Below are positions 12,787-37,705 of a stretch of DNA of 44,120 nucleotides, in pieces (the first letter of the stretch is position 1; every line of letters starts with the position of its first letter). The notes under the pieces are model-generated. The model was not told the DNA's origin, did no database searches, and saw only the letters and a list, made by a program, of their open reading frames with translations. Where the stretch lies: IMG/VR virus record IMGVR_UViG_3300025706_000009. The stretch is one strand, 5' to 3'. Position numbers and translations under genes: made by a program. Origin of the DNA: a virus.

Positions 12787-13548
12787 ATGAAGCGAATCCT
12801 CATACTGACAATCCTGCTCATGTCCTCGCTGGCATGGGCAGGGAGTACGACGGTGGTGGTGGGGCAGGGGGGCGGGGCTCCAGTTGCTTTCTGCTCTGGA
12901 TCTGTACTGTTCTGTGAAGACTTCGAGGGAACAGATACTTCCTGGGATGTAGCCGAGTCACTTGACTGTGATGGGTATGATTCAGATGGAGTTTACTGCG
13001 ACGATGACACATCGGTTTCTATGGAGGGGTCGGAGGTTCTCGGAGTCCGGGGGCCTAATACTGACTATATACAAGAGGCCCTATCTTCCTCCGATCAGAC
13101 AGAATTGTATTTTGAAGTGTGGTGGAGAGTTAATAACGTAAGCGGAGTGAGATCAGGTCCAGGGTGTTATACATCGGGGGGATATCAGTCAATATCATTG
13201 GATCAGTCTTGGGGGACTCTTAGAGCCATTATAAAAGGTGGGACTGCTGGGCTTAATACATCCAAAACAGATTTTGCTGCAAATACCAAATATCATATAG
13301 GAGTCTACTGGAAGATTGAGACTGCGGCAGGAAACAATGATGGAATTGTGAGGGTTTGGATGAATACTGATGGAGGTGAATTTGATGCAGCGGATTTGAT
13401 TTTGAATAATACCTCAGTTGATACTGGAGCCGAAAGCGAAGGATGGCAAGCTGATGTTTGGAGAATACCGGGTCCGGCGGCAGGATATGTGAGCTACACA
13501 GATAACAATAGAGCTGTTGCAGGAGCACCGTCATGGGCATACGAATAA
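12787..13548 (+). CDS. Secreted-type protein, possibly a ConA/LamG-like carbohydrate-binding fold (253 aa)
   Basis: Sec-type signal MKRILILTILLMSSLAWAGS. The segment YHIGVYWKIETAAGNNDGIVRVWMNTDG resembles lectin/glucanase-fold proteins. Low-GC DNA. The fold call is weak. Confidence 0.55.
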   Translation: MKRILILTILLMSSLAWAGSTTVVVGQGGGAPVAFCSGSVLFCEDFEGTDTSWDVAESLDCDGYDSDGVYCDDDTSVSMEGSEVLGVRGPNTDYIQEALSSSDQTELYFEVWWRVNNVSGVRSGPGCYTSGGYQSISLDQSWGTLRAIIKGGTAGLNTSKTDFAANTKYHIGVYWKIETAAGNNDGIVRVWMNTDGGEFDAADLILNNTSVDTGAESEGWQADVWRIPGPAAGYVSYTDNNRAVAGAPSWAYE

Positions 13549-19666: not shown

Positions 19667-20737
19667 ATGGCGAACGGCGCAATATATGTTCCACAATGGG
19701 ACCCCTGGCAGGGACTCAGGCAGGGCATCCTGCAGCTCGCCATGGGATACAGCAGGGGCCTCGAGAAACAGGACATGACCAGCCAGATAGCTGAGCTCAT
19801 GGCGAATCTTCCCGGGACGAGAGAGAAGCAGACGCTCTTCCCCATGGCCATGAACCAGACAGGAGGGACGCCGGCACCAGGCGAGGGCATTTCACCGTCC
19901 GGCGGCGTTGACACCGGGACACCTGCAGCACCCGCCATCGTGGAGCAGGTCCCCGAACCCTTTGACCTGAAGAAGGTCATGGGGGGTATCACAGACCCGA
20001 ACCTGGCCATGGGTATTCTTCCGACCATGATGAACTACGATTCCGAGAGCAAGCGCATGGCCGCGGCTGAGAAGCTGGCGGCCCAGAAGGAGGCCTTCGA
20101 GCAGGCGAAGCTGGACAACGAGCCGGTGAAGATCACGGCATGGAAGAAGGCCGGGAACGAGTATCAGCCATTCACGGTGACTGTGAAAAGAAAGAACGTG
20201 CCCGAGGTCGAGGCCAGGTTCCAGGAGAAGGGCTACTATGTGGGCGAGACTCCGAAGGCGATACCGCAGGGGCCCCATAAGGTGATAAGCTACAAGGACC
20301 CCATCACTGGCCGGTTTGTTCAGAAAGATACGGTTACGGGACAGATCATGGACTATCCCGGGCAGGGCGAAGGCGAGAAGGCTCCTACTCAGAAAGAGGC
20401 AGCAAACAAGATATCGGATATCGACAAGGCCATCTTCTCGCTGGAAACAAAGGGGACTCTCGGTGACCCCATAATGGCCATGCTGGCCGCGAGCAATCCT
20501 GGTCTTGTAGATCAACTGAAGGGCGACCCGAAGGAGGCGATCAAGACCCTTGAGGCAGAGCGGGACTATTACCTGCCCTATGCCCCGAAACAGATACAGG
20601 ACAGGTACAAGCCGAAAACCGACAATGCCCCGAAGGTGCTCAGTGATCCGGCCAAGGCAAAAGCATACCTCGATGCGGCGGGAGGCGACAAGGAGAAGGC
20701 CCGGAAACTGGCCAGAAAGGATGGTTGGACATTCTGA
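19667..20737 (+). CDS. Putative internal virion/ejection protein (356 aa)
   Basis: Strong RBS tAGGAGGTGAcgc precedes the ATG. Charged, Lys/Glu/Pro-rich. The call is positional. Confidence 0.45.
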   Translation: MANGAIYVPQWDPWQGLRQGILQLAMGYSRGLEKQDMTSQIAELMANLPGTREKQTLFPMAMNQTGGTPAPGEGISPSGGVDTGTPAAPAIVEQVPEPFDLKKVMGGITDPNLAMGILPTMMNYDSESKRMAAAEKLAAQKEAFEQAKLDNEPVKITAWKKAGNEYQPFTVTVKRKNVPEVEARFQEKGYYVGETPKAIPQGPHKVISYKDPITGRFVQKDTVTGQIMDYPGQGEGEKAPTQKEAANKISDIDKAIFSLETKGTLGDPIMAMLAASNPGLVDQLKGDPKEAIKTLEAERDYYLPYAPKQIQDRYKPKTDNAPKVLSDPAKAKAYLDAAGGDKEKARKLARKDGWTF

Positions 20738-23700
20738 TGCCCGACATCTTCGACCAGGTGGCAGGCGGGACCACTTCAAAGGGTGACATCTTCGACCAGA
20801 TAGCACCCACAAAGAAGCCTTCTCCGTTCAGGGATGTTATCGAGAAGGCGTTCAATGCCCTGTACGGCATGAACCTTGGGCAGGGGGAAGAGGCGCTCTA
20901 TGGAACACCGACCGGCAGGGCTCCATCCGCACCCGGCAAGATGGGCTTCTTCGAGAAGAACGTCATTCCTGAGAGCCCTCCTGTACCGCTCAGTGAACGG
21001 GAGGCGTCCCTGCTCCCGGCTCCAAGTGGCGCGCCATCTCGGCCACAGGAATCCATCCGCAGCGGCGAGCCTACCCCTGCCATGGACACCCTGAAGGCCC
21101 ACGGCAAGAACATCCTCTCGGCGGCAGACCAGGTTCATGCCCACACCATGGACCTCATGGCCGGGCTCGGGAAGATCATCGAAGAGGCCGTGCCCGGATA
21201 CTCGGGGACATGGCTCAAGCAGAAATACCAGGAGCTTGCCCGGAAGGACCGGGAGCTGGCCGAGGAATTCAAGACCGACCCGCAGGGCGCAGCAGACAAG
21301 CTGACGAAAACGGTCCTCCAGGGCGTCGTGAGCCTTGGTGATCCGACCCTTCCGCTCATGGCGAACCCGGCAGCGTTCGGCGCTGTTTCTGCAATAGCGG
21401 CTTATGGCCAGGGCAGGCCGGTTGACCAGAGCATCATCGACGGGCTCAAGAGCGGCATCGTGGCCAAGGGGTTCGGAAAGGTCCACGGGCTCAAGCCCAC
21501 CGAGGCGGCAGGCAAGCTGGGTGCGATCGGAGCGACCGAGGCGGCAACGGGGACACCCGGAGGCCTGGAGGAGAAGGCGCTCGCCGGTCTTGAGGGCGGG
21601 GTCACGCAGGGCATCTTTGGCGGCATGGCGGCGTCCCGGCTTGGACCGAAGGGAAGGGAGGCGTACAAGACGAATGCCCCGATTGTAGGCCATGAGAAGG
21701 CCCTGGAGATTGCCAGGACCGTCGAGGCGCAGAAGTCACCGAAGGGGGATATCTTTGACAGGGTGGCAGGGGTGAGCACTGAATTACGCACTGAGAAGCC
21801 CACCATCAAATACACCGAGGGTGAGACCCCTGCCCCTTCCGGCGAGACGAAACCCGAGAAACCGAAGGTGGTTGAAAATGCCATCGAAGGTGATATAATG
21901 CCTCCTGTGACCTCCAAGCAGGGGCCGGGCGAAAAAACCACCGAAGCAACCCCTAAGCCCGAGGGTGGGGAAAAGGTATTTTACAGGGGAACCACTTCGG
22001 GAAGCACTGAGCGGATAGAATCGCCCTTCGCAAAGGATAAACTATTTGTAAGTTCTGATAAAAAACTTGCTTCAGCCTACGGTGAGAACATAGAAATCAT
22101 CACAGCGAAACCAGATGCCAAGATATTGTACGAAGGAACTCCTGAATTTAAAAAGGTATTTGGCAAAAAAGAAGTGATGGGTAATCTCAGGAAAGGCGAG
22201 CTCTACCCTGATGGGTTGCAACGCGCCGTGAATGCAGCAGAATCCGCAGGATACGACGCTGTTCATTTTTCGCAGCAGGGCAATGTCGGGACTGTTATAC
22301 TTAACGAGAAAGCCTTCAACCGAAACCAGCCTTTTGAGCAATCCCGCCCCCCGGAGAAGGGGGGCAAGACAGCCCTTTCCGACATCGGTGAATCACCGAA
22401 GGGCATACCTGCAAGAAAGACGCCCCCGATTATTACTACCGAGCAGAAGAAGCGGCAGGCCAAGGCGAAGGCGGTCAAGGAGCAGCAGCTCAAGGTAGAG
22501 AGCGCCGAGGACGCAAAGAAGGCCGTCCATTCCATGATCAGGGAGCGCCGGTATCGCCTGAACCTTGCGACCTACGAATCGAACCTGTTTATCAATGAGA
22601 TCGAGCGATCCACCTCACGGGAACAGCGCGAAGTCATCCCGTTCATCATCGAGAATACCGACGTTCCAAAGGGCCTGAACCGCCCGGACCTGGAGAAGAT
22701 CCACGCAGCGGAGAAGGCGAACCTTGCTCCGATAGCCCGACAGGTGAAGGACCACTTCGACAAGGGCTGGCAGAAGATGAAGGAGAGCACCCCGGATATG
22801 TCCGCGGAGCAGATCGAGGACTATGTTACCCATATCTGGGACATCCCCAAGGGAAAGAAGCGTGAGGTGACAAGCTGGTTCACCACGCAGAACCGATTCC
22901 TGAAAAAGAGGTTCATCGAAACGATCAATGAAGGCGTGGAGAAGTTCGGGCTTCAGCCGAAGACCCTGGACATTTCCGAGATCATCCGCATCCATGACAG
23001 CGTCATGAACAGGGTCATAGAGAACAACCGTTTCGTCGAAGACCTGAAGAAGCTCAGGAAGGACGGCGTACCCCTTATCGAGAGGGCAGACAAGGCTCCG
23101 CAGGATTGGGCCTACTTCGACCATCCAGCACTGAGAAGGGGCCTGATCATCCCCGGTGAGGCCAAGATGGGGGAGAAGGTTTCACCCGAGCTTGCCGACA
23201 TCTTGGCAGAGATGGGCGTCGCCATCGGCAGGAGAATTTCCCCCGTGACGTTCGGGAAGCCGACATGGAAGGCCGGGGAGTACCGGCCCGGCGATACCCC
23301 GGAGGTCAGGTTTCAGCGGTTCATGTCGAACCGTACCATTGCCCATGAGATAGGTCATCACCTGGATGCGACCCTGGGCCTGGGCGACAAGTTCCTCAAC
23401 AAGTACAAGACCGAGCTTTACGAGGTAAACAGGAAGCGGATTGAATCGTTCGCGGGGACCGACAAGGAAGCCTATGCCAAATCGACCGAGGAGCAGATCG
23501 CGGAGTTCTTCGCCATTCTGTTCACCAACCCGGACCTCGCGAGCAAAGTAGCGCCTACCGCGACGGCTGATGCCCTTACCAGGCTGAAGGGTGATGGAAT
23601 CATGACGAAGCTGGCAGGCTTCGACTTCGAGAAGAACGCCAAGAACCTGATCGAGGAGCGACTCGACACGATGGTCAAGCTCCCGGTCAAGGTTCACCCG

Positions 23701-25314
23701 GACCTTGAGGCTCCGTTGAAGGTGATATTCGAGAGCCGGATGACGCACCCGGCAATTCAGGCGTATGAGACAATGAACGGCATCCTGAAGAAGACTGAGC
23801 TGAGTCTCTCCCTGTTCCATCATGTGGCCCTCGGGGAAACCGGGATCGGCACCATGGGTCTGCCGAAGACCCTGGGTATCTACTTCAACCCGGTCAAGAT
23901 TTTCAAGGCGATGTGGCGTGGGGAGTATGACATCTACAAGAAGGAGCCCATTGCCAGGGATGCCATAGAGCACGGCCTGCAGGTGGGAGCGACGTCCGAC
24001 ATCCCCGTGAACATGATCCAGACGAAGCTGAACGACATGGCCAGGAAGACCAGGAATGTCCTGGTTATCAACAAGGCGACGGCGTTCCTGAGAACATTCA
24101 ATGAGCAATGGGATAAGGCCCTCTGGAATTACCTGCATGATACCCTGAAGCTGCAGGGCTATGAGTCCCTGTGCGCGAAGATGGACCCCACCAAGGACAT
24201 CAAGGCACAGAAGGAGGAGATAGCTCAGTTCGTGAATGACACGTTCGGCGGCCAGAATTGGGATGTCCTCATGGTGAGCCCCAAGTCCCTTCAGCTCATG
24301 TCCTGGTTCCTGCTCTCCCCGGACTGGACCCTCTCCACGCTCCGGCAGGCCCTTGCCCCTACCGGCATCGGCACGATTCACAAGGAAGCAGGCAGCGCAC
24401 TCAGGAAAAAGATGGGCGCCCATTTCTGGATCAAGGCCGGCTTGTACTTCGGTCTGGGCATCAATATGCTCAATTACATGAACAGGAAGAGGGACGAGAA
24501 GGAACACCCGGAATACTACGAGGGCGAAGAGCGCGGCTTTTTCGACAGAACCATGGCTGGCAATGCCATCGGCCACAAGACGCACCTGTTCGCAGGAAGG
24601 TACGACGACGGCACGGAAAGATACGTCCGATGGGGCAAGCAGTTCAGGGAGCTTCCCGAAATGTTCTTCGATGATACCGGTTTCTCTCCGATCAGCGCGA
24701 CCATCAAGAAGATCGGCGGCAAGATGGCACCGGCCCTTCAGCTCGCATCATCCATCCTGACCGGCTCGTCCCTGTCCGGGTTCAGGAACGACGACATCAA
24801 CGGGAAAGAGGGCTGGGATAAGGTCTACGGGATAGCGAAGACCATCCTTAAATCACCGTTCCCGTTCAGTTCAAGGACCATGTTCGATGAGAACAAGGAA
24901 TTCCATGCAACAGACCTCGCCATGCCAAGTTCTAAGGGCATGACCCGGTATCGCTCCATGGAACTGTTCAAGGTTGCCGTGGCCAAGGGCGACGAGAGGA
25001 TGCTGAAAGAAGTCTACCAGGATACCCTGAGAAACAATCTCCCGGCATACACCTTGTTCAATGCATCCCTGGCCCAGCTCAAGGCAGAATCGACCAAGGA
25101 GTACAACGAGGGCCTGAAAAGCATAGCCGACATTCAGGAGAGGGCGAAGCAGGTAGAGACGCCCCTTGAAGCTGCACGGCTGGCAAGGATCATGAAGCGC
25201 ATGATTAAGGAGAATGCCGACCGTATGGCCGGGATGAAACTGCTCGATGCGGCGATCCTGAACCTGAGAAAGTACCAGATCCTAAATGAGGCCGAGGCGG
25301 GTAGCAAGAAGTAG
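20737..25314 (+). CDS. Giant internal-virion-type polyvalent protein with an HEXXH zincin motif and an AT-rich inserted domain (~1525 aa)
   Basis: ATG 20737 overlaps the upstream stop; the track start 20725 is a TTG. HEIGH at 23344-23358, within NRTIAHEIGHHLD. There are three KGDIFDxxA motifs. The segment at about 21964-22340 is low-GC and encodes FYRGTTSG...LFVSSDKKLASAYG. Confidence 0.7.
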   Translation: MPDIFDQVAGGTTSKGDIFDQIAPTKKPSPFRDVIEKAFNALYGMNLGQGEEALYGTPTGRAPSAPGKMGFFEKNVIPESPPVPLSEREASLLPAPSGAPSRPQESIRSGEPTPAMDTLKAHGKNILSAADQVHAHTMDLMAGLGKIIEEAVPGYSGTWLKQKYQELARKDRELAEEFKTDPQGAADKLTKTVLQGVVSLGDPTLPLMANPAAFGAVSAIAAYGQGRPVDQSIIDGLKSGIVAKGFGKVHGLKPTEAAGKLGAIGATEAATGTPGGLEEKALAGLEGGVTQGIFGGMAASRLGPKGREAYKTNAPIVGHEKALEIARTVEAQKSPKGDIFDRVAGVSTELRTEKPTIKYTEGETPAPSGETKPEKPKVVENAIEGDIMPPVTSKQGPGEKTTEATPKPEGGEKVFYRGTTSGSTERIESPFAKDKLFVSSDKKLASAYGENIEIITAKPDAKILYEGTPEFKKVFGKKEVMGNLRKGELYPDGLQRAVNAAESAGYDAVHFSQQGNVGTVILNEKAFNRNQPFEQSRPPEKGGKTALSDIGESPKGIPARKTPPIITTEQKKRQAKAKAVKEQQLKVESAEDAKKAVHSMIRERRYRLNLATYESNLFINEIERSTSREQREVIPFIIENTDVPKGLNRPDLEKIHAAEKANLAPIARQVKDHFDKGWQKMKESTPDMSAEQIEDYVTHIWDIPKGKKREVTSWFTTQNRFLKKRFIETINEGVEKFGLQPKTLDISEIIRIHDSVMNRVIENNRFVEDLKKLRKDGVPLIERADKAPQDWAYFDHPALRRGLIIPGEAKMGEKVSPELADILAEMGVAIGRRISPVTFGKPTWKAGEYRPGDTPEVRFQRFMSNRTIAHEIGHHLDATLGLGDKFLNKYKTELYEVNRKRIESFAGTDKEAYAKSTEEQIAEFFAILFTNPDLASKVAPTATADALTRLKGDGIMTKLAGFDFEKNAKNLIEERLDTMVKLPVKVHPDLEAPLKVIFESRMTHPAIQAYETMNGILKKTELSLSLFHHVALGETGIGTMGLPKTLGIYFNPVKIFKAMWRGEYDIYKKEPIARDAIEHGLQVGATSDIPVNMIQTKLNDMARKTRNVLVINKATAFLRTFNEQWDKALWNYLHDTLKLQGYESLCAKMDPTKDIKAQKEEIAQFVNDTFGGQNWDVLMVSPKSLQLMSWFLLSPDWTLSTLRQALAPTGIGTIHKEAGSALRKKMGAHFWIKAGLYFGLGINMLNYMNRKRDEKEHPEYYEGEERGFFDRTMAGNAIGHKTHLFAGRYDDGTERYVRWGKQFRELPEMFFDDTGFSPISATIKKIGGKMAPALQLASSILTGSSLSGFRNDDINGKEGWDKVYGIAKTILKSPFPFSSRTMFDENKEFHATDLAMPSSKGMTRYRSMELFKVAVAKGDERMLKEVYQDTLRNNLPAYTLFNASLAQLKAESTKEYNEGLKSIADIQERAKQVETPLEAARLARIMKRMIKENADRMAGMKLLDAAILNLRKYQILNEAEAGSKK

Positions 25315-25361
25315 CCAGATCACGACCAGTGCGACGAGGAGTTTCAGGGCGGTGCGGCCGG

Positions 25362-25505
25362 TCATGGCTTCCTCGGTGTAGCCTTATAGGCTATGAGCAG
25401 CCCGACAGCGAACACCATGAGCACGGCTATTGCGACATCAGCAATCAGCGCCGACCGCGGATAAGCCAGAACCCACTCTATCGACAGCTTCCACAGGTAC
25501 AGCAT
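25362..25505 (-). CDS. Tiny membrane protein (47 aa), last or second-to-last gene of the leftward operon
   Basis: RBS cAGGAGGaacc precedes ATG 25505. Sequence MLYLWKLSIEWVLAYPRSALIADVAIAVLMVFAVGLLIAYKATPRKP has one clear TM segment. The longer track ORF to 25664 has no RBS. Confidence 0.45.
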   Translation of the reverse strand: MLYLWKLSIEWVLAYPRSALIADVAIAVLMVFAVGLLIAYKATPRKP

Positions 25506-25650
25506 GGTTCCTCCTGTTACCACGTTAGGGCTGCATTTGCAAATTCGCGGATTGTTCGCCGGTTGCCCGTGGAATGGCACCTGGCCTTTGCCTGTTATGC
25601 GACAAGAACAGGCCCATTTATGGGTGATGAAACGGCTTCCGCATATTTCC

Positions 25651-27978
25651 TTACTTTTCACCACCTGTTTTCTGTGACAGGTCAGATACAGGCTCCATCT
25701 CCTCGAATAACGTACCCTGGTTGAGATCGGACTTCGCCTTTCTGAGATTGCGACATGATTCGTTGAAGTATGCCTCTTTCAATTCGATGCCTATAAACAT
25801 CCTGTTCAGTTGCAATGAAACGTAACCCTCTGACCCGATTCCAGCGAACGGAGAGAAGACAACATCCCCAGGATTGCTCCACAGGTTAAGGCACCTTTCG
25901 ATGGTGTCAAGTTGCAGCGGGCAGATATGGCGCTCGTCCTGGTGCTCCCGTGCGGCTCGTTCATTTAATGTGCGCGTTTGCCGAATATCAAACCATACCG
26001 GGCTGGCGTATCTTTGCCATACTTCATGGCTGTATTTATTCACCCTGGCATCATCTGACTTCTCGGCGGTAGGCTCTGGTCGCTCTCCCACATAGTATTC
26101 AAATCCTCTTCCGTGCGAAATGGGCTCATAATTATCACCGGGCTTTCTCATCGTTACCACATAGTCAGGAAAACCATTCCCGCACCTTGATGAATCCTTG
26201 CTGATCTGCTTGTGGGCCAACGTCAAGACCTTTGTTCTGACGGCCTGAAGAAGAGGGTCTTTCCAGATACAAACCTCGGAATGGTATATGAAACCATGCT
26301 TTTCAAACATCCTGATTATATCCCCCCTGAAGTCTCGCATGCCGATCACTCCATCCCTTGATATGGTCATTGGCAGGTTCATGCAGTGGATGGATACAAG
26401 TCTTCCTGGCATAAGAACCCGCTTGATTTCACCGATCAGGTAATCAAAGTGGGCGGCAAACTCTTTATCATTCTTGCAATTTCCCATGTCGCGGTGACTG
26501 CTGGTGTAAGTGAACAGTTGGGCAAAAGGAGGGCTGAATATTGAATACCCAACAGAATCATCATGTATCGTTTTAGTGACTTCTACGCAATCCCCTAGAT
26601 ACATGGTCCACCCATCACCATGCTCGGTGTGCTCGCGGTAGACATCCCTAAATCTATGAACGCTTTTCATTTCCTCGGCCGTAACGGTTGCCATGTGCTG
26701 CACCATATTCATGCTCATTTCCTCAGCAGCCTTCTCCTTACGGCGAAGGTTTGATATTACACACCCGTCCAGCTCCGATTCGATGACGTGGACATTCACT
26801 GTGTTCGGCTGGCCGAATCTCCAGCATCGACGAACAGCCTGGTAATACTGCTCGTAAGAATCTGACAGGCCAACGAAGATCATATTGTGGCAGTTCTGCC
26901 AGTTCATGCCGTACCCGGATATTGATGGCTTGGTTACGAGAACCCGTATATCTCCATTGGCAAAACCGATCATGGACGCCTCTTTATGTTCGGGGGCATC
27001 GCTACCCTTGATCTGTACCGAATCGGGAAGACGCTTTGCCAGGGCGTCATTCTCCGCGTTCAGTTCGCACCATACGAGCCATTGCTCATCGCTCCCGTTG
27101 ATCGTATTGGCTATTTCCTCTACTCGCTGCTCAAGCGTAGACTTACGGGCGGCTCTGCGCTCGGAAAGTGTCAGTTTCTCCACGGCGAACAAATGCCCAA
27201 CCTGTGATGCGTCGGCTTCTATGGTGTGTTCATGTACTTCCAATGAGGGCAGCACGAACCCGTCATCAGAATAGCCAAGGTCCGACGGTTTCTTGAGCAT
27301 AACAGCCCATTGGCTCATCCATTCCCAGAACCGTTCTTGGGCATGGCCCTTGAGCCTCCATGTTCCGGTGTCACTCGCATCATTCACAAAGAACATGGCG
27401 AGCATTTCTGCACGGGTCATGGCCCCAAGGAATTCAGCATGGTTGCCGAGCTCAATGTAGTCGTTCGGGGCTGGCGTGGCAGTACATGCCAGTTTGAATT
27501 GAGTACCCGTGAATGATTCTATGATCTGCGTTCGGACCTTCCCGGTATATGATTTCAGGATGCTCGATTCATCGAGAACGATACCAGAAAAAACCGACGT
27601 GTCAAACTTGTGCAGCATCTCATAATTGGTAATATTAATGCCGTTAATGATATCTGTGTTCTCCCTCGCGAGAGAAACGACTATCCCAAACTTCTTGCCC
27701 TCCCTGATGGTCTGTCTTGAAACCGCCAGCGGAGCCAATATCAAGATAGGCTTATCGGTTCTTGTATGAACATGCCGCGCCCATTCAAGCTGTATCGGTG
27801 TTTTGCCAAGGCCGCAGTCTGCAAATACCGCGAGCCTGCCGCGACGCAATGCATACCGCACAATGTCTTTCTGAAACCCGAACAGCATAGGGTTCATTTC
27901 ATCCAGCGGAATGTCAAATCCCATTGGCTGAATATTAAACTGCTTATCCTCTAAAAACTTCTGATAGTCCGTGCTCAT
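25651..27978 (-). CDS. SNF2-family helicase fused to an N6/N4 DNA methyltransferase (775 aa)
   Basis: Helicase motifs ADCGLGKT, VLDESS, CTATPAPN, QAVRRCWRFGQ. The C-terminal MTase has SPPF (motif IV) before FSPFAGIGSEG (motif I), the beta-class order of N6_N4_Mtase. Low-GC DNA. Confidence 0.85.
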   Translation of the reverse strand: MSTDYQKFLEDKQFNIQPMGFDIPLDEMNPMLFGFQKDIVRYALRRGRLAVFADCGLGKTPIQLEWARHVHTRTDKPILILAPLAVSRQTIREGKKFGIVVSLARENTDIINGINITNYEMLHKFDTSVFSGIVLDESSILKSYTGKVRTQIIESFTGTQFKLACTATPAPNDYIELGNHAEFLGAMTRAEMLAMFFVNDASDTGTWRLKGHAQERFWEWMSQWAVMLKKPSDLGYSDDGFVLPSLEVHEHTIEADASQVGHLFAVEKLTLSERRAARKSTLEQRVEEIANTINGSDEQWLVWCELNAENDALAKRLPDSVQIKGSDAPEHKEASMIGFANGDIRVLVTKPSISGYGMNWQNCHNMIFVGLSDSYEQYYQAVRRCWRFGQPNTVNVHVIESELDGCVISNLRRKEKAAEEMSMNMVQHMATVTAEEMKSVHRFRDVYREHTEHGDGWTMYLGDCVEVTKTIHDDSVGYSIFSPPFAQLFTYTSSHRDMGNCKNDKEFAAHFDYLIGEIKRVLMPGRLVSIHCMNLPMTISRDGVIGMRDFRGDIIRMFEKHGFIYHSEVCIWKDPLLQAVRTKVLTLAHKQISKDSSRCGNGFPDYVVTMRKPGDNYEPISHGRGFEYYVGERPEPTAEKSDDARVNKYSHEVWQRYASPVWFDIRQTRTLNERAAREHQDERHICPLQLDTIERCLNLWSNPGDVVFSPFAGIGSEGYVSLQLNRMFIGIELKEAYFNESCRNLRKAKSDLNQGTLFEEMEPVSDLSQKTGGEK

Positions 27979-28321
27979 AGTCGTACATCTCCTCCATTGA
28001 ATAGAATACCGGGATGTTCAATTCTTTTGCCCTTGCAATTTCATTCTGTACGCCTCGGCTTGTCTCGATCCTGTCCGGTATAACCAGAACACAATCTGAA
28101 ACATCGAGCCATTGCAAAGAATAATCGTGGAACATGGAGACAGTCAACGACTTCCTTTCCTCATCTGTCATATGAAGAACATATTGATGATCTAGCCATG
28201 GGCAGAATGGGGCATGTCCCATGAGAAACAGGCTTTTGCATAACTGGATACCCCTAGCGATATTTCCAAGAACTCCGAGCACATTATCATCGGAGTATTT
28301 ACCAGCAACATATACCTTCAT
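27944..28321 (-). CDS. DUF4406 / nucleoside 2-deoxyribosyltransferase-like protein (125 aa)
   Basis: The pattern MKVYVAGKYS...N...A..L...GHAPFCPW...CVLVIPD...SRGVQNEIARAKELNIPVF matches that family as I recall it. RBS GGGAGGAGGGA. Confidence 0.6.
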   Translation of the reverse strand: MKVYVAGKYSDDNVLGVLGNIARGIQLCKSLFLMGHAPFCPWLDHQYVLHMTDEERKSLTVSMFHDYSLQWLDVSDCVLVIPDRIETSRGVQNEIARAKELNIPVFYSMEEMYDYEHGLSEVFRG

Positions 28322-28379
28322 CCCTCCTCCCTTCTCATTTTTACAACCTCTTCCCTCTTCCTCCTGATATATTCTAGGC

Positions 28380-29546
28380 TCATTTCTCCTCCATCCTTTT
28401 CATTGGCACGACTTCGCCTTTTTTCCTCTCCCGTATCTCCCTGACAACCTCGTAGGCGTCCGTGTTCTCAACCTGGCAGTAGCGGTCGAACGCCTTGTTG
28501 GTAAGCCCTGACGCCTTCAATGCCCGGTCTGCCCCTAGCATTTTGGCCGTTTCCGTGGCCGTGGTGTGCTTGGTGCCGGGGTAGAGTGGGACGCCTGAGA
28601 TGCCTAGCGCCTTACACGCCTTGTTCCACCAGTCGGACAGGTGACGGGGGCCGAAGACGAGGTTGCGCCTGACGGTTCCACGGACCTTGCCGTGATGCCG
28701 AAAGAATGGCATGTCAGGCATGGCGGGATACTCTCTCTGTAATCCTTTCCAGGCGGCCACATGATCTTGATGTAGGTGGATATGCTTGAATCTGTTTTTA
28801 AGTTTAGTGGGATTACATAAGTGTATCCACTCCCCATCGAAATCTCCTTCCCTTATCCTTCTCAGGTCATCGGGCCTCAGTGCCGTGTAGGTTGCAAGCA
28901 TGTCGCAGCCAAGCCACACCTTCGGCGGGGCGATCTCCTTGAGCTTATTCAGCACCTTCTCCTGTAACTCCCATGTCAGGATCTTGCGGTATCCCAACTC
29001 GTACTTGATGTCAGGGAACGCCGGAAACTCTGCCAGGGTGATCACATCCCCCCTGGACAGGCACCACCGCCAGAAGTTCCGAAGCTGCGCCATGTGGTTG
29101 TGGCGGGTCTTCTGGGATATGCCGGGTATGCCCCTGAGATAGTCGGCTATCATCCCACCCGTGATGTCCCGCAGGTTGATTCTGCCGAAGTGGGCAGATG
29201 CCGCATTGATCATGAATGACACCTTGCCGATGGATCGTAGCCCGTCCTGCCGCTTGACCTCCAGGTACTTCGGTGCAAGGGCGGCGAATGAGTTTGGGCG
29301 CAGACTCCGATAATCGTCAGGGTTGAAGTCCCGCCCACGCTCGGCCTTCTCATGCCTGAGATGGTTAAGCTCCTGCTCGGCCTCGGTCAGATTAACGAAT
29401 GTCTTGTAGATGCCCCCCGGAAACTTCACTATATACGTCCTGGCGCGATTCGTTGGGTGGTCCGGGCAGGAACACCACCTACCGTTGTACCTCATCACCT
29501 TGCCGCAAATAGAGCACTTTTCTCTGGTATATATCCCCCCATCCAT
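28380..29546 (-). CDS. Tyrosine-recombinase (phage integrase)-like protein with an N-terminal Cys4 zinc ribbon (388 aa)
   Basis: Strong RBS GGGGAGGAGGTGtagtc precedes ATG 29546; the track start 29612 has none. It has ALRPDDLRRI (Arg I), KLKNRFKHIHL, ...GTKHTTATE... and ...FDRYCQ (Tyr). Several catalytic positions look substituted (see findings). Confidence 0.65.
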   Translation of the reverse strand: MDGGIYTREKCSICGKVMRYNGRWCSCPDHPTNRARTYIVKFPGGIYKTFVNLTEAEQELNHLRHEKAERGRDFNPDDYRSLRPNSFAALAPKYLEVKRQDGLRSIGKVSFMINAASAHFGRINLRDITGGMIADYLRGIPGISQKTRHNHMAQLRNFWRWCLSRGDVITLAEFPAFPDIKYELGYRKILTWELQEKVLNKLKEIAPPKVWLGCDMLATYTALRPDDLRRIREGDFDGEWIHLCNPTKLKNRFKHIHLHQDHVAAWKGLQREYPAMPDMPFFRHHGKVRGTVRRNLVFGPRHLSDWWNKACKALGISGVPLYPGTKHTTATETAKMLGADRALKASGLTNKAFDRYCQVENTDAYEVVREIRERKKGEVVPMKRMEEK

Positions 29547-29608
29547 GACTACACCTCCTCCCCGAACTCGGGGCCTGGAAGTGTACTCCATCTGGGCGGG
29601 GGTTGTCA

Positions 29609-30448
29609 TCATATCTCGCTAAGTCCTGTTAATATCAGGCTGTTCTTCTCGTCCTCGACATCGAAGAGCCTCATCTGGTTGTCGGTGAAGTCTACATCCG
29701 CAAGGGGAATGCAGGAAAAATGTAGATACGCCTTACGTTTCTGGCGCGTGTCTCTCCTTATCGCATCATCTACTAGACAAGCATCACTAAATTCCTCAAG
29801 GGTGAGCAGTCTCCAATCGTGGTCCGTATGGTAGGGGCATCCAATACAGGATGATTTCGGCGGGACATGGTTGGGGAAGTTTCTGTCTATCCACTGGATG
29901 CACTGCTGTCGGTTCATCTGTATCCATTCGATGAGGGGAAATCTCATGTTGGACATACGATCAGGGCGATATGTTTTGGTCCTTCTCAGTTCGTCCATAG
30001 AAATTCCAATCCACTGTTCAACGGCCCCCTGTGGCGCTCTCTGGCCCTTGTGAAGACCGAGGAGTTCGCGCAATTTTCTTTTTATGGGTTGAATCTTGAA
30101 ATCATAGGTGCATTCCCGTCTACCAATGGATTTTCCATTACATCCTACGGAATGAGTTGGCATTTTGACGAACCCATAACTATCTATCGCGCTCTCCCTG
30201 AGATTCATCCCGTTTTTTGTTCCCTCCACCCGCACAATCGGTGTCCCATGCTCCTTCCCCATCTGCTCCAGCCATTCAAGGTGCTGGTACGTCTTCATGG
30301 TTTCCCATCCCGTATCTGCAAAGATTGCAAGGTGGGGCTTGGGGAGAAGTCCCTTTATGGACATGAGAAAAATAGCGGTAGACTGCACACCAGCACCGAG
30401 AGAAAGAATGCGGAGCTTGTATAACTCTGTGGCGGCGGGGGTTGTCAT
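29609..30448 (-). CDS. PAPS reductase / PP-loop ATP-pyrophosphatase family protein, DndC/IbrA-like (279 aa)
   Basis: N-terminal LSLGAGVQSTAIFLM is a PP-loop-like motif, with ADTGWE following. The C-terminus has CIGCPYH. The size is typical of phage PAPS-reductase-like proteins. Confidence 0.7.
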   Translation of the reverse strand: MTTPAATELYKLRILSLGAGVQSTAIFLMSIKGLLPKPHLAIFADTGWETMKTYQHLEWLEQMGKEHGTPIVRVEGTKNGMNLRESAIDSYGFVKMPTHSVGCNGKSIGRRECTYDFKIQPIKRKLRELLGLHKGQRAPQGAVEQWIGISMDELRRTKTYRPDRMSNMRFPLIEWIQMNRQQCIQWIDRNFPNHVPPKSSCIGCPYHTDHDWRLLTLEEFSDACLVDDAIRRDTRQKRKAYLHFSCIPLADVDFTDNQMRLFDVEDEKNSLILTGLSEI

Positions 30449-31042
30449 CTACTTCGTCACCTCGGCTATGAGGTCGGCGAGGATGCTCCCTAAGTCAACA
30501 TGGTCTATTGGCATTGGTATCTTTATGACCATGTTCTCTGATATTATCTTCAGTATCTTGTCCCGGTACTTTCCGACGACATCAGCATCCTTCGGCTTAC
30601 ACTCCTCATTCGCGCAATTCCCGTCCTCGTCCAGCGGCCAGCCGCAGGAGGGGCAGGACTGCGGGTCGGTGTCCGGGCAACCGTCCCACTCGTCATCGGG
30701 TATCGCCTTCTTCTCCTTGCCACACTCACAGCAGCGTTCGTATGGCCCCTCCCATTCGCCCTTGGCGTTTATGGTGTAAGAGCGGTCGAACCATGTGTCA
30801 GTCTCATGGTCACATGTGCAGTAGTCGGGCTCGTCCGGTATCTCCTTAATCGCCTTCTCGTATGCCTGCCGGTCCCGCTCATCTGCCCACGCTGTCACCA
30901 TGTCCACGGCCTCCTTGTAGTCCTTGACCGTGCGCTCAAGGGCGGCGAGGCGGTAGGCGAGTGCTAGGATGGCACGATACCCCAGGTGCACACAGTATCC
31001 ACCTTGATCCAGTATCTTCAACTCATCAATCGGATCGCTCAT
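30449..31042 (-). CDS. Cys-rich hypothetical protein, multiple zinc-ribbon-like CxxC pairs (197 aa)
   Basis: Contains CTCDHETD, CCECGKEKK and CPSCGWPLDEDGNCANEEC. The ATG overlaps the upstream stop. Confidence 0.6.
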   Translation of the reverse strand: MSDPIDELKILDQGGYCVHLGYRAILALAYRLAALERTVKDYKEAVDMVTAWADERDRQAYEKAIKEIPDEPDYCTCDHETDTWFDRSYTINAKGEWEGPYERCCECGKEKKAIPDDEWDGCPDTDPQSCPSCGWPLDEDGNCANEECKPKDADVVGKYRDKILKIISENMVIKIPMPIDHVDLGSILADLIAEVTK

Positions 31043-34898: not shown

Positions 34899-35263
34899 TT
34901 ACACCTCATCCTGTCCCGCTGTGGATAACCTGGATTTGATCCCAGCGATAATATCGTGCGAATACTGACTGCTCACGCCCTGTGAGTACCATTTATCGGA
35001 TTTGACGTCGTACCAGATTTTCCCATCAATGGAGTGGAGTATGCGTGTTGCCTCACAATTACTGATTGTCTCGCCATTGAGCAGCGCACGGCTAATGTTT
35101 CCGGTGTTGTAAAACGAGAGGACCAATCCCAGCGCGGGGACTGTTACATCGAGGTTGAAATACACCCTGTGCATCTCGTTTTTGATCCATTCGCGCCCAC
35201 CGATTGCGACCATGTTAGATACCACTAAACTCTGTACCTGAGACTCGATCTGCATAGTGTCCA
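34899..35263 (-). CDS. First gene of the long leftward operon; hypothetical (121 aa)
   Basis: ATG 35263 follows cacAGGAGGacgtt. The track start 35294 would coincide with the predicted transcription start. The DNA is AT-richer. Confidence 0.55.
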
Positions 35264-35300
35264 TAACGTCCTCCTGTGATTTATTTTTGATCATGGGTAT

Positions 35301-35329
35301 ATAATAATCCTATCGTTAGGTAATGTCAA
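35301..35329 (-). promoter_or_regulatory. Sigma70-type promoter (leftward): TTGACA-17 nt-TATTAT
   Basis: The minus strand reads gTTGACAttacctaacgataggatTATTATatacc. -35 is at 35329-35324 and -10 at 35306-35301. Confidence 0.6.
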
Positions 35330-35399
35330 CCCCCAATCGTCATTTTGATAAAAAAATAAAAAGCAATGATATTAGTAATATACATGATCCGCGCGGGAT

Positions 35400-35663
35400 T
35401 CAGAAACAAAATCTAAGAGCGTAGTTGGTGAGGGGCCAGAGGATGACACCGGCGAGTCCGGTCCATCCGATGCCCCATAAGAACGTCTTGGACATGGGCC
35501 AGTTATCGGGCGATCCTACCGCAACGAACATCAGCAGGACCGCCCACAGGAAACGGAGAGGGGAAGGGGAGGTCATGCCTCCGCCCTCCTCAGTCTCAGC
35601 GGGGCCGATCTCGATGTATGTCTTGGTCTTGTGGTTCACGATCCAATAGCCGAGCTTTCCCAT
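35400..35663 (-). CDS. Small membrane protein with two C-terminal TM segments (87 aa)
   Basis: ATG 35663 follows gaAAAGGAGGTGtgac. Contains LRFLWAVLLMFVAVG and GIGWTGLAGVILWPL. Confidence 0.55.
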   Translation of the reverse strand: MGKLGYWIVNHKTKTYIEIGPAETEEGGGMTSPSPLRFLWAVLLMFVAVGSPDNWPMSKTFLWGIGWTGLAGVILWPLTNYALRFCF

Positions 35664-35664
35664 G

Positions 35665-35985
35665 TCACACCTCCTTTTCGGGGTCGTCCACATAGGCACA
35701 GGCGCGGGATATGACGGCGGCCTCGTCCTTGAGGACGAAACAGGGGCAGGGGCCGCTCCGATCATTAACAGAGCGCGCCTTCACGATTTCGGGAAATATC
35801 TCGTCGCACAACTCGCAGAAGTCGTCCCTGTAGCCAGCTTGATCGGCCGATGCTTCAGACATATATTCCCGGCGATAACAGATCGGGCAGGTGTCGGTTC
35901 CGTCGCGCTTCATGATTTCATCCCAATCCTCAAGGATGACGCGCACGGTCTCGCGGTAGAGTCTGGTGTTTTCGATGGTCGCCAT
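35665..35985 (-). CDS. Cys-rich hypothetical protein (106 aa)
   Basis: RBS tAGGGAGGGAtaaacc precedes the ATG. Contains CPICYRREY, CELCDE and GPCPCF. Confidence 0.6.
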   Translation of the reverse strand: MATIENTRLYRETVRVILEDWDEIMKRDGTDTCPICYRREYMSEASADQAGYRDDFCELCDEIFPEIVKARSVNDRSGPCPCFVLKDEAAVISRACAYVDDPEKEV

Positions 35986-35988
35986 GGT

Positions 35989-36081
35989 TTATCCCTCCCT
36001 ATTCTCCCGCAAGAATGCGGACATGAATGCTTTGTACTCCGGTGAACTGGTGATCTGTTCGACTATGGGTTTCTTGTTCAT
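35989..36081 (-). CDS. 30-aa leader ORF (MNKKPIVEQITSSPEYKAFMSAFLRENREG)
   Basis: Not in the track (under 60 aa). The ATG follows aGGGAGGGacgct and lies about 35 nt downstream of the predicted transcription start. Confidence 0.35.
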   Translation of the reverse strand: MNKKPIVEQITSSPEYKAFMSAFLRENREG

Positions 36082-36122
36082 AGCGTCCCTCCCTTGCCTT
36101 GCGGCATATCATGATACTGCCT

Positions 36123-36150
36123 ATTATAAGAATCTATCGGATAATGTCAA
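36123..36150 (-). promoter_or_regulatory. Sigma70-type promoter (leftward): TTGACA-16 nt-TATAAT
   Basis: The minus strand reads cTTGACAttatccgatagattctTATAATagg. Both hexamers are consensus. Confidence 0.65.
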
Positions 36151-36227
36151 GAGCATTCTTAACATATTTTTGCGAAAAATATAACCCACAATATATTCAA
36201 TGGTTATAAAAATAATCAACTTGCCTA

Positions 36228-36256
36228 TTGACAAGCCGCATCTTGTTATTTATTTT
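36228..36256 (+). promoter_or_regulatory. Sigma70-type promoter (rightward): TTGACA-17 nt-TATTTT
   Basis: The plus strand reads aTTGACAagccgcatcttgttattTATTTTtatggcATG. The -10 ends 6 nt before ATG 36263. Confidence 0.5.
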
Positions 36257-36262
36257 TATGGC

Positions 36263-36466
36263 ATGATAGCAAAACTCGATGTGGAAATGGTCAATCTGCT
36301 CAGAAAACGCCACAAGTTGAAGACCAGGGATCTGGTCAAACTCCTTGGGTACAAGTCCCGGCAGGGCTATGCCTACATGATTTCGTCACAGAGCATAGCC
36401 AAGGTTCCTGAACTTGCCAAGATATTTGGCGTAGAGAAAAGAGCATTGGTGATAATTGATTGCTAA
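36263..36466 (+). CDS. HTH (XRE/Cro-CI-like) transcriptional regulator (67 aa), possibly leaderless
   Basis: LRKRHKLKTRDLVKLLGYKSRQGYAYMISSQS...LAKIFGV shows a helix-turn-helix pattern. An alternative start is ATG 36287. The track start 36200 lies upstream of the promoter. Confidence 0.6.
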   Translation: MIAKLDVEMVNLLRKRHKLKTRDLVKLLGYKSRQGYAYMISSQSIAKVPELAKIFGVEKRALVIIDC

Positions 36467-36516
36467 GGGCATGATAAAGACAGTCCTCACGGGCGATGCC
36501 ATATTGCCCTCCTCTT

Positions 36517-36551
36517 CCCGGTCGGGTACTACGGCCTGGCCGGGACTTTTT
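36517..36551 (+). terminator. Intrinsic terminator T1
   Basis: cccggtc...ggccggg forms a stem (7 bp including one G-U, extendable by 2 bp), followed by acTTTTT. Confidence 0.6.
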
Positions 36552-36619
36552 GCCTCGCAACTCCGCACCACATGCGGGGACAGTATACGGGCGTCCGAGC
36601 GACGCCTCAAACCTCCTTT

Positions 36620-36644
36620 GGGGGTCGCAAGGCCCCCACTTTTT
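36620..36644 (+). terminator. Intrinsic terminator T2 (GCAA tetraloop)
   Basis: gggggtc-gcaa-ggccccc (7 bp including one G-U), followed by acTTTTT. Confidence 0.7.
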
Positions 36645-36675
36645 ACAGACCACAAAGGTGCAATGCACTTCGCGG

Positions 36676-36726
36676 CCCCCGGTCAAAACCAACGCATGGG
36701 TACTGCGTGGCCGGGGGATATTTTTT
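36676..36726 (+). terminator. Intrinsic terminator T3 (branched stem)
   Basis: cccccggtc...ggccggggg forms a 9-bp stem including one G-U. It encloses the inner hairpin acgca-tgggtac-tgcgt and is followed by ataTTTTTT. Confidence 0.65.
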
Positions 36727-36740
36727 CTGAGAGGTAATCG

Positions 36741-36911
36741 ATGGCATACGACATGAAAGACTGGTGGAGAGACAGCGGCAAAGAAGAACAGCGCATCAAC
36801 GGCATGAGAAACGGTGCCATGAGAAGGGCCAAGAAGCGCGGCATTAAGTTGAGCCTGGCCGAGATCCGCATCATGACGGAGGAGCAGCTGAGGGAGGCGT
36901 TCGGTGGATAG
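36741..36911 (+). CDS. Small basic hypothetical protein (56 aa)
   Basis: Not in the track. ATG 36741 follows tGAGAGGtaatcg. Sequence MAYDMKDWWRDSGKEEQRINGMRNGAMRRAKKRGIKLSLAEIRIMTEEQLREAFGG. Codon usage resembles its neighbours. Confidence 0.45.
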   Translation: MAYDMKDWWRDSGKEEQRINGMRNGAMRRAKKRGIKLSLAEIRIMTEEQLREAFGG

Positions 36912-36956
36912 GGTTTTCAAGTGCCAGGATGACGGGGATCGTTGCTTTTCCCATGC

Positions 36957-36992
36957 GATCTCCCAACCCGTGGTCCTGGCGCTTGGGAGATC
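36957..36992 (+). promoter_or_regulatory. Perfect 10-bp inverted repeat (gatctcccaa-N16-ttgggagatc) covering the SD of the next gene
   Basis: Read directly. The right arm contains GGGAGA, 6-11 nt before ATG 36998. Confidence 0.55.
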
Positions 36993-36997
36993 ATATC

Positions 36998-37705
36998 ATG
37001 GGAAAAAATCCGGCATTTCAGTTTTATCCGTCAGACTGGACGAGGGATCTGGACGACCAAGACCTTGAGGTCGAAGGAGCGTGGATTCGCGTGTGCTGTA
37101 GACTCTGGTGGACAGAGGGGAAAGCCACAAAATCTATTGGAGAGTGGTCCCGCATTTTGAGAAAAACTCAGAAAAAAACGATGAAAATTTTTCAAATTTT
37201 GATCGAAAAAGGCATCGCGAGTGGAAGCCTTTTGGATAACCAAAACATAACCATAATTTCTCGCAGGATGGTTAAGGATATTGAAATATCAAAGATAAGA
37301 CAAGAAGTTGGGAAGAAAGGCGGCAACCCTCAACTTAAAAAACCCGAAACTCATTTGGATAACCAAACCGACAACCAAAATCCAACCCCTTCTTCTTCAT
37401 CTTCTACTACAAAGAAAAAGAATATTGCGCCTTCGGCTGGTTTCGATCTCTTCTGGTCACTGTATCCCGTCCATAGGGAGAAGAAAAAAGCGGTCATCGC
37501 ATGGAATAAACTTCATGCCGAAAACGGAACTGTCGAGATGATCCTATCTGCGCTCAAAAATCAGATCGAGTGGAGAAAGACCGCAAAGGGATTTATCCCT
37601 GAATGGCCATATCCTGAACGATGGATAAAAAATGAGCGGTGGACGGATGAGATTGAAAAGACGGAAACAGCCCCATCAATCATCAACAAGGGGTGGCAAT
37701 CATGA
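36998..37705 (+). CDS. DUF1376-type replication initiation / replisome organiser protein (235 aa)
   Basis: The N-terminus NPAFQFYPSDWTRDLDDQDLEVEGAWIRVCCRLWW matches the DUF1376 signature (YFxFYxxDW...L). The C-terminal FDLFWSLYPVHREKKKAVIAWNKL motif is common in phage replication organisers. Confidence 0.65.
   Translation: MGKNPAFQFYPSDWTRDLDDQDLEVEGAWIRVCCRLWWTEGKATKSIGEWSRILRKTQKKTMKIFQILIEKGIASGSLLDNQNITIISRRMVKDIEISKIRQEVGKKGGNPQLKKPETHLDNQTDNQNPTPSSSSSTTKKKNIAPSAGFDLFWSLYPVHREKKKAVIAWNKLHAENGTVEMILSALKNQIEWRKTAKGFIPEWPYPERWIKNERWTDEIEKTETAPSIINKGWQS

Follow-up and report, generated by a model that had tools for sequence, protein, structure and literature searches.

A probable mosaic of integrase, PAPS-reductase-like and DUF7768–methyltransferase genes at the end of the early operon of a metagenome-assembled phage

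Content and composition of the four-gene block

The IMG/VR virus record IMGVR_UViG_3300025706_000009 is a 44,120 nucleotide (nt) stretch of phage DNA, referred to here as the window. At positions 25651–30448 it carries four genes that an initial annotation had singled out as a possible DNA-modification or exclusion system. The first 100 nt of the window are repeated exactly at position 43994, within a terminal direct overlap of approximately 127 nt (1–127 and 43994–44120), and this shows that the window holds a whole phage genome assembled as a circle, about 43,993 bp in length. Profile searches found genes for a P22-like portal, a large terminase, an endolysin, a replication initiator and a DnaB-like helicase. 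The four genes form the distal end of the leftward early operon, which is headed by a perfect consensus promoter (TTGACA-16-TATAAT, 36150–36123, minus strand), and are convergent with the late genes. Gene content, motifs, predicted folds, gene neighbourhoods and base composition were examined, and the enzymatic activities and substrates proposed below are predictions from these.

The list of open reading frames (ORFs) confirmed that the four genes are consecutive and all read leftward, and in profile searches the family labels first given to the four proteins held at the level of family or superfamily. The first gene (29609–30448, minus strand) encodes a PAPS-reductase-like PP-loop protein (adenine-nucleotide alpha-hydrolase) of 279 amino acids (aa), hereafter the PAPS-like protein. 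It is followed by a gene for a lambda-Int-like tyrosine recombinase/integrase of 410 aa (28380–29612, minus strand) and then by a purine-rich spacer of 58 nt (28322–28379, minus strand), which ends in a strong GGGAGGAGGG ribosome-binding site and the ATG of the next gene. This third gene (27944–28321, minus strand) encodes a 125 aa DUF7768/DUF4406 protein belonging to the nucleoside 2-deoxyribosyltransferase (NDT) superfamily. The last gene encodes a 775 aa fusion, with a SWI2/SNF2-type ATPase module in the N-terminal part (approximately aa 1–440, 26659–27978, minus strand) and a beta-class N6/N4 DNA methyltransferase module in the C-terminal part (approximately aa 457–775 and the stop codon, 25651–26610, minus strand). 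The tight coupling described earlier was also seen, namely a 4 nt overlap (ATGA) between the PAPS-like and integrase genes and a 35 nt overlap between the DUF7768 and SNF2-methyltransferase genes. On two sister contigs the gene callers started the integrase at a later ATG (at about 29546, giving 388 aa), and with this start the first overlap is gone.

The block had been described as an AT-rich island of about 45% GC in an operon of 60% GC or more. It is indeed the lowest-GC 4.8 kb segment of the genome (rank 1 of 440), but the difference is smaller than had been thought, 50.7% compared with 57.3% elsewhere, and it does not extend over a single island, as the GC content at third codon positions (GC3) differs gene by gene. 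The GC3 of the integrase gene (0.715) matches that of the neighbouring early genes (0.66–0.77), while the PAPS-like (0.557), DUF7768 (0.444) and fusion (0.570) genes are outliers. Hence, the apparent island is made up of two foreign patches flanking a native gene. Two further low-GC patches (0.42–0.49) are present in the genome. One is within the tail-gene region (13001–14500) and the other is the divergent-promoter/regulatory region (35001–37500), with consensus promoters at 36150–36123 (minus strand) and 36228–36256 (plus strand).

Neighbourhoods were counted in the 80 best loci for each query. Single-protein scans of viral contigs returned one partial locus for the PAPS-like protein and none for the integrase, and alignments were used instead. 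As tblastn had missed a distant PAPS_reduct gene in two loci (L093 and L103), the cross-checks were repeated with profile hidden Markov models, and the conclusion was unchanged. All occurrences of the complete four-gene block were in copies of the same phage, which was assembled with the same block from three or four metagenome samples, and a megablast search with the block DNA against 50,697 phage records gave no match. In the 80 genomic loci containing an integrase homologue, neither a PAPS-like nor a DUF7768 gene was present, and an SNF2-methyltransferase gene occurred in a single locus, 5 kb away. Within 8 kb of the PAPS-like gene in 80 viral loci, no DUF7768 gene, no integrase of the window's family and no full-length fusion was found. 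Co-localisation in related genomes thus fails for two of the four genes, and the proposal that they form one system was not upheld. The four-gene combination is a lineage-specific juxtaposition, in which the native integrase gene lies between two independent acquisitions, and each of its parts belongs to an already known kind. For annotation, the case warns that genes packed closely together in a low-GC stretch where a phage operon ends do not necessarily belong to one system.

We consider it probable that the block is a mosaic operon end made up of three independent units. The first would be the integrase of the phage, a member of a family with insertion sites beside tRNA and tmRNA genes of Desulfobacterota. 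The second would be a stand-alone PAPS-like PP-loop enzyme that adenylates a substrate and belongs to a family usually found in replication/repair modules. The third would be a two-gene cassette composed of the DUF7768 and SNF2-methyltransferase genes.

If, alternatively, all four genes constituted one DNA-modification or exclusion system, the PAPS-like protein would add a non-methyl mark (for example by phosphorothioation of the Dnd, Ssp or BrxP type), the recombinase-like protein would be a DNA-binding or regulatory subunit, and the DUF7768 and fusion proteins would complete the machine. The co-oriented, tightly packed arrangement with its two overlaps and the intact state of the block in all copies of this phage are consistent with such a system. 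So too are a weak PADLOC match of the PAPS-like protein to SspD (3e-7) and the reported production of phosphorothioate DNA by BrxP-type PAPS reductases (PMC12914056). PAPS-like genes were also located 1–2 kb from the fusion in two of 80 fusion loci, in one distant phage (L093) the distance between a DUF7768–fusion pair and a different PAPS_reduct gene is 3 kb, and in one locus (L172) a PAPS-like gene is directly beside a DUF7768 gene. Set against these points, the block did not recur outside this phage in the loci examined, and the composition of the integrase gene is native, that of the other three genes is not. The integrase family is found beside tRNA and tmRNA genes, like ordinary integrases, and no other recombinase family was detected by Pfam among 43 further ORFs of the genome.

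There was also no sign of the partners that known systems of this type require. Among the block proteins and the 43 further ORFs, none of the partners of Dnd/Ssp (DndA/B/D/E, SspA/B/C), BREX type 4 (BrxA/B/C/L, PglZ) or DISARM (DrmA/B/C) was found. When PADLOC was run on five block proteins, the only matches were that to SspD, those to type II methyltransferase models and one to DpdE (4e-9), and for the 43 further called ORFs only weak mad8 and weak PDC-S73 hits were obtained. The Pfam scan of these ORFs revealed no second methyltransferase, no cysteine desulfurase and no PglZ. The block itself contains no nuclease. A VRR-NUC and a PD-(D/E)XK nuclease are both encoded outside it, the latter together with an uncharacterised partner gene (phrog_3657) with which it may form a recombination pair. 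The PADLOC and Pfam searches therefore gave no indication of the phage-borne exclusion system suggested previously, and we regard a single four-gene system of any kind as highly improbable.

The integrase and the PAPS-reductase-like gene

The recombinase-like gene is most probably the phage's own integrase, as seen from its lambda-Int-like fold, the tRNA-side context of its family and its native composition, and the phage is probably temperate. The protein matched phrog_1 (E = 1.9e-17) in the PHROG profiles. Pfam, including the Phage_integrase model PF00589, gave no hit for it, although some members of the family do match PF00589, and sequence searches against the PDB and phage records returned nothing useful. 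The best match to the AlphaFold model (pLDDT 83.3) was the full-length lambda Int (1z1b, E = 2.5e-9, 341 aligned columns), and XerA, IntI, XerH, Tn1549 Int and Cre were also matched, so that both a catalytic and a core-binding domain can be recognised. The protein has an N-terminal CxxC...CxxH zinc ribbon, and R245, K269, H348, R376 and Y377 are invariant in the family alignment.

A total of 198 homologues of the integrase was found, and a scan of GTDB genomes revealed 281 relatives, nearly all of them in Desulfobacterota (Syntrophaceae, Desulfomonilia, Desulfobacteraceae, Syntrophales and Smithella). The host of the phage is likely to be a bacterium of this phylum. In 47 of the 65 loci with sufficient downstream DNA, the integrase stop codon is followed within 600 nt by a tRNA or tmRNA gene that reads on the other strand, as is typical of integrases that adjoin their attachment sites. 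In the genomic loci of the homologues (L182–L261) the targets include tmRNA and the tRNAs for Met, Ala, Leu, Pro and His, amongst others. This is an overlooked integrase family that is specific to Desulfobacterota, targets tRNA and tmRNA genes and is mostly missed by the Pfam Phage_integrase model.

Some features sit less easily with an integrase acting in the usual way. In the subfamily that includes the window protein, the second catalytic Arg is replaced by Lys (GTKHTT versus GTRHTT in distant members) and the His preceding the catalytic Tyr is absent. Two genes separate the integrase gene from the nearest sizeable non-coding DNA, whereas the integrase gene is terminal in the relatives. Five approaches within the window also failed to find attP. 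No candidate came from a tRNA scan of the window, from an Rfam scan of positions 25000–30600 (E ≤ 10, no tRNA or tmRNA fragment), from a short-word BLAST search of the window with 69 tRNA/tmRNA genes taken from the relatives' loci, from a BLAST search with the DNA downstream of homologous integrases, or from a search for repeats in the two spacers, the 58 nt spacer having no tRNA-like attachment core. We nevertheless infer that the integrase is catalytically active, because two proteins with the same substitutions (L098 and L099, 64% and 58% identical to that of the window) are located at chromosomal junctions with tRNA-Met and tmRNA genes.

The only sizeable non-coding DNA near the integrase gene is a gap of 336 nt (25315–25650) where the leftward early operon and the late operon converge, and it is a possible location of attP. 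A small hydrophobic ORF of 47 aa (approximately 25362–25505, minus strand) lies inside this gap, downstream of the SNF2-methyltransferase gene, and is called as a gene on the sister contigs.

The PAPS-like gene is, by its composition (GC3 0.557), a separately acquired accessory gene. The protein belongs to a very large family, for which over 7,700 homologues were found at E ≤ 1e-10, along with over 590 loci in IMG/VR and 59 phage records. It matches phrog_424 (E = 6e-39), and sequence conservation in the family includes the SLGAGVQS loop, R-x-C-T and S-S-C-I-G-C-P-Y-H. The conserved cysteines are C113, C183, C201 and C204, the last two in the CIGCPYH motif. Among 145 ORFs flanking the PAPS-like genes there were 11 for UvrD-type helicases, three for DNA polymerase A, three for DUF6378, three for a RecA-dependent nuclease and two for C5 methyltransferases. 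The closest homologue (62% identity, L089, 1744–3239) is located between a gene of the Acb2/Tad1 type, which is immediately upstream, and a primase gene. The protein would be an adenylating PP-loop enzyme of DNA metabolism, acting on a nucleic acid or nucleotide substrate rather than on sulfate.

Related genes have been annotated in the viromics literature as sulfur auxiliary metabolic genes (PMC8879888), and on this view the PAPS-like protein would be a genuine CysH by which the phage increases assimilatory sulfate reduction in its host. In agreement with this, the best matches to the predicted structure (pLDDT 88.7, a PP-loop fold) were the CysH enzymes 6vpu and 1sur (E approximately 2e-4, TM 0.39–0.49). 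However, all TM values were below 0.5, and the TtuA, LarE, GMP synthase and TilS folds scored nearly as well. The match to Pfam PAPS_reduct (E = 4.9e-4, 20.6 bits) is below the gathering threshold of 22.5, and the family profile found no solved structure in the PDB by sequence at E ≤ 0.1. The C-terminal ECG[LI]H catalytic motif of CysH is absent from the window protein, which ends in ...KNSLILTGLSEI, and the neighbours are genes for helicases, polymerases and nucleases, not sulfur genes. We consider a role in sulfate reduction most improbable. A large family of phage "PAPS reductases" is thus routinely reported as sulfur auxiliary metabolic genes yet is found among helicases and polymerases and lacks the catalytic motif of CysH. 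PAPS-reductase-like proteins of phages have been described as "deserving further investigation", their function being untested (PMC11437467).

A few further observations concern the surroundings of these genes. There are hints that the PAPS-like and DUF7768 accessory genes sit in anti-defence neighbourhoods. The Acb2/Tad1-hairpin gene beside the closest PAPS-like homologue is an anti-CBASS/anti-Thoeris sponge gene, and a Tad2-like neighbour of DUF7768 was seen once. DUF6378 genes adjoin DUF7768 in three cases as well as PAPS-like genes in three. In the window, a gene encoding a 197 aa cysteine-rich protein with several CxxC and CxC clusters (30449–31042, minus strand) directly abuts the start of the PAPS-like gene. 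This protein had no match in the libraries, and no homologue was found beside PAPS-like genes in other phages.

The DUF7768 and SNF2-methyltransferase genes

The DUF7768 and fusion genes make up the only conserved linkage in the block. Among the 80 viral loci with a DUF7768 gene, 22 also have a homologue of the fusion, and when the sequences are clustered at 90% identity the pair is present in 17 of 62 clusters. The two genes are immediate neighbours in 19 of the 22 loci, and both gene orders occur, with DUF7768 upstream, as in the window, in six loci and downstream in the remainder. The closest cassettes (L102–L104) have DUF7768 proteins 62–65% identical and fusions 60–77% identical to those of the window. 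An archaeal-virus record includes a fusion gene followed by an overlapping NDT-like gene. For comparison, methyltransferases accounted for only two of the 145 ORFs flanking PAPS-like genes.

The partners of DUF7768 are not limited to the SNF2 fusions. The flanks of the other 55 DUF7768 loci included 19 MazZ-like dGTP_diPhyd_N genes, four genes each for MT-A70 and VRR-NUC, three for Dam and one each for N6_N4 and PAPS_reduct. In one locus (L090), the gene for a DUF7768 protein with 69% identity to that of the window overlaps a C5 methyltransferase gene, and in the cultured coliphage PJ16 a DUF7768-like (NDT-like) gene overlaps the Dam gene by 8 nt. No mention of a DUF7768–methyltransferase pairing was found in the searchable literature, where the name DUF7768 did not occur and DUF4406 occurred in three papers, always outside the title and abstract. 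The pairing is undescribed and is the only point of modest novelty in the block. The main lead is this recurrent joining of DUF7768/DUF4406 genes, whether to genes for MazZ-like dNTP hydrolases or to genes for methyltransferases that belong to unrelated classes.

The third protein of the block matched the Pfam family DUF7768 (E = 2.2e-9, 38 bits, cut-off 26) but was below the cut-off for Nuc_deoxyrib_tr (23.2 bits, cut-off 28.8), so that it belongs to DUF7768 and is related to the NDT enzymes at the superfamily level only. Its homologues also match DUF4406. Y4, S88, G90 and E94 are invariant in 28 DUF7768 sequences and D76 is also conserved. The motif S88-x-G90-x3-E94 aligns with the sequence SLGVGYELG of Rcl/DNPH1 on the catalytic Glu, which places the protein in this superfamily. 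The best relative of solved structure is the uncharacterised 1t1j (2e-7), and Rcl was found only at E of about 0.01. The phage enzyme DmtZ, from the same superfamily, has been shown experimentally to be a dAMP N-glycosidase, and its gene adjoins that of a dATP/dGTP hydrolase (PMC12884076). DUF7768 is predicted to be a deoxynucleotide N-glycosidase or transferase like DNPH1 and DmtZ, and more specifically a deoxynucleoside monophosphate (dNMP) N-glycosidase, because the Tyr/Glu motif is retained and the MazZ-like neighbours mirror the arrangement of DmtZ. Working alongside the methyltransferase, such a deoxynucleoside-5'-monophosphate N-glycosidase would destroy a single kind of deoxynucleotide, perhaps one that is methylated or otherwise non-canonical.

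A different activity was also considered, in which DUF7768 is an S-adenosylhomocysteine (SAH) nucleosidase that relieves product inhibition of the methyltransferase. This idea was attractive because it would fit pairing with any class of methyltransferase, but it leaves the equally frequent MazZ-like partners unexplained, no enzyme of the DUF7768 fold is known to cleave SAH, and the idea was set aside.

The two genes might together produce more than methylation, either by exchange or removal of bases on DNA exposed by the translocase, or by supplying a modified dNMP for incorporation. Their adjacency recurs in both gene orders, the catalytic Glu and Tyr of DUF7768 are conserved, and DmtZ is a precedent for the transfer of deoxyribose-5-phosphate to a non-canonical base by a phage enzyme of this superfamily (PMC12884076). 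On the other side, the fusion is found without DUF7768 in approximately 96% of its loci, and no genes for base synthesis (PurZ, Que) were seen in the Pfam scan of the 43 further ORFs. DUF7768 also pairs just as readily with Dam, MT-A70, C5 methyltransferases and MazZ-like dNTP hydrolases, and partners that are simple methyltransferases or hydrolases point to a substrate in the free-nucleotide pool rather than in DNA. We regard modification beyond methylation by this pair as distinctly improbable. A broader proposal, that DUF7768/DUF4406 proteins are a dedicated class of partners for phage DNA methyltransferases of any class (SNF2-N6/N4, Dam, MT-A70 or C5), with a role beyond simple self-methylation, is put forward tentatively and is on balance rather doubtful. 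Such a partner could cleanse the nucleotide pool by destroying methylated or non-canonical dNMPs that modified DNA releases, or it could exchange bases to give the DNA a mark beyond methylation. Were this true, the cassette in the window would do more than self-methylation.

The description of the last protein as a 775 aa fusion of SNF2 and beta-class N6/N4 methyltransferase modules was supported. It matched Helicase_C and N6_N4_Mtase (5.4e-18) in Pfam, as well as phrog_16 (1.9e-78) and phrog_62 (4.6e-64). The motifs of both modules are intact, including Walker A (GLGKT, aa 56), DESS (aa 136) and motif VI (QAVRRCWRFGQ, aa 380; QxxxRxxRxGQ) in the ATPase, and motif IV (SPPF, aa 482) and motif I (FAGIG, aa 711) in the methyltransferase. 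The methyltransferase module matched the solved structure 2zie (1.2e-9), and also DpnA, MboIIA and CcrM. SPPF is a variant of motif IV that is typical of N4-cytosine enzymes such as M.PvuII, and it is retained in 12 of 14 fusion homologues. The target base would be adenine (N6) or cytosine (N4), and the motif leans toward N4-cytosine. Homologues of the fusion were found in 426 phage records, 306 of which cover at least 80% of the query, from phages of Mycobacterium, Staphylococcus, Flavobacterium, Synechococcus and other hosts. Isolates that carry it include Synechococcus phage S-CBS3 and Flavobacterium phage FCV-1.

Fusions of this kind are known as counter-restriction equipment of phages. 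Dyads of a SWI2/SNF2 ATPase and a DNA methylase occur in phages, plasmids and conjugative elements, with DarB of phage P1 as the archetype, and methylation coupled to translocation has been proposed as their means of counter-restriction (Iyer et al. 2017, PMC5512222). By analogy with the DarB dyad, ATP-driven translocation of the fusion on double-stranded DNA would lead to processive methylation of the phage DNA, at adenine N6 or cytosine N4, and the methylated DNA would be protected from host restriction.

The fusion might instead serve mainly in replication or recombination, or in epigenetic regulation of phage or host genes. Elsewhere it is found inside replication modules, next to Prim-Pol (L093) or to a RepA helicase (phage S-CBS3), and PHROGs files it under DNA helicase. 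However, the window phage has its own initiator and DnaB-like helicase, the fusion gene, the last of the operon, is an accessory gene of foreign composition, the methyltransferase motifs are conserved across the family, and the published reading of the dyad is counter-restriction (PMC5512222). This alternative is unlikely. The narrower suggestion that the SNF2 module is the replicative helicase was rejected, given the initiator and DnaB-like helicase encoded elsewhere in the genome.

In addition to the peculiarities of the integrase, several points weigh against the mosaic of three units with the functions proposed here. The two loci in which a PAPS-type gene is either 3 kb from a DUF7768–fusion pair (L093) or directly beside DUF7768 (L172) bring together genes assigned above to separate units. 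The four genes are co-transcribed and tightly packed, and a functional interaction peculiar to this phage is possible. The DUF7768–fusion pair is facultative and the dependence is one-sided, as DUF7768 was present in just three of 80 viral fusion loci. The link between a dNMP glycosidase and methylation, including the removal of methylated or non-canonical dNMPs, is speculation.

On the other side of the convergent region, at the end of the late operon, is a gene for a 1,529 aa protein (20725–25314, plus strand) that is convergent with the SNF2-methyltransferase gene and had no match in Pfam or PHROG. It includes a single zincin-type HEIGH motif (aa 874, approximately nt 23344) and an FYRGT stretch (aa 419), and is possibly an injected effector of the polyvalent type that Iyer et al. 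2017 described.

Relationship to known systems

The integrase shares with the lambda-type integrases that target tRNA and tmRNA genes the three-domain fold, the conserved Arg, Lys, His and Tyr residues and, in its relatives, a position at one border of an integrated element, next to the 3' end of a tRNA or tmRNA gene. It differs from them in the lack of a hit to Pfam Phage_integrase, the Lys in place of the second Arg, the loss of the His/Trp before the Tyr, the zinc ribbon, and a location that is not the last gene.

The PAPS-like protein has the PP-loop alpha-hydrolase fold and conserved cysteines in common with DndC, SspD, BrxP of BREX type 4 and CysH. Unlike these, it is a protein of about 280 aa with its own CIGCPYH motif that belongs to a separate phage family (phrog_424) and is not accompanied by partner genes of any of the systems.

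DUF7768 resembles DNPH1/Rcl and DmtZ in its small size (approximately 125 aa), its N-terminal Tyr and the S-x-G-x3-E motif that contains the nucleophile. The gene arrangement is also similar, as DmtZ is encoded beside DutZ/MazZ, and genes resembling dATP/dGTP diphosphohydrolases are frequent next to DUF7768, making up 19 of the 107 ORFs that flank it in the 55 loci. However, the similarity to these enzymes is weak, and the Pfam families matched are DUF7768 and DUF4406 rather than Nuc_deoxyrib_tr. The window phage lacks PurZ and other Z-genome genes, and the partner of DUF7768 is a DNA methyltransferase. Among cultured phages, a close parallel to the cassette is in the Nonanavirus and Sashavirus enterobacterial phages (Escherichia phage PJ16, Salmonella phage 9NA and Bas82), in which a DUF7768-like gene is immediately upstream of the Dam gene and overlaps it. 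In these virulent or unrelated siphophages the identity is 32–35%, and the partner is a small stand-alone Dam rather than an SNF2 fusion.

The fusion corresponds to the P1 DarB dyad in having an SNF2-type ATPase and a DNA methyltransferase in one polypeptide encoded by a mobile element, and it can be counted amongst these dyads. The order of the modules is reversed. In proteins of the DarB type the helicase is C-terminal to the methylase (PMC5512222), whereas in the compact fusion of 775 aa the ATPase is N-terminal and the methyltransferase C-terminal. The fusion also differs from DarB-type proteins in lacking the extra domains of polyvalent proteins and in being encoded in the early operon rather than among the virion genes, and its motif IV (SPPF) is of the N4-cytosine type, in contrast to the adenine methylases named for the dyads (PMC5512222).

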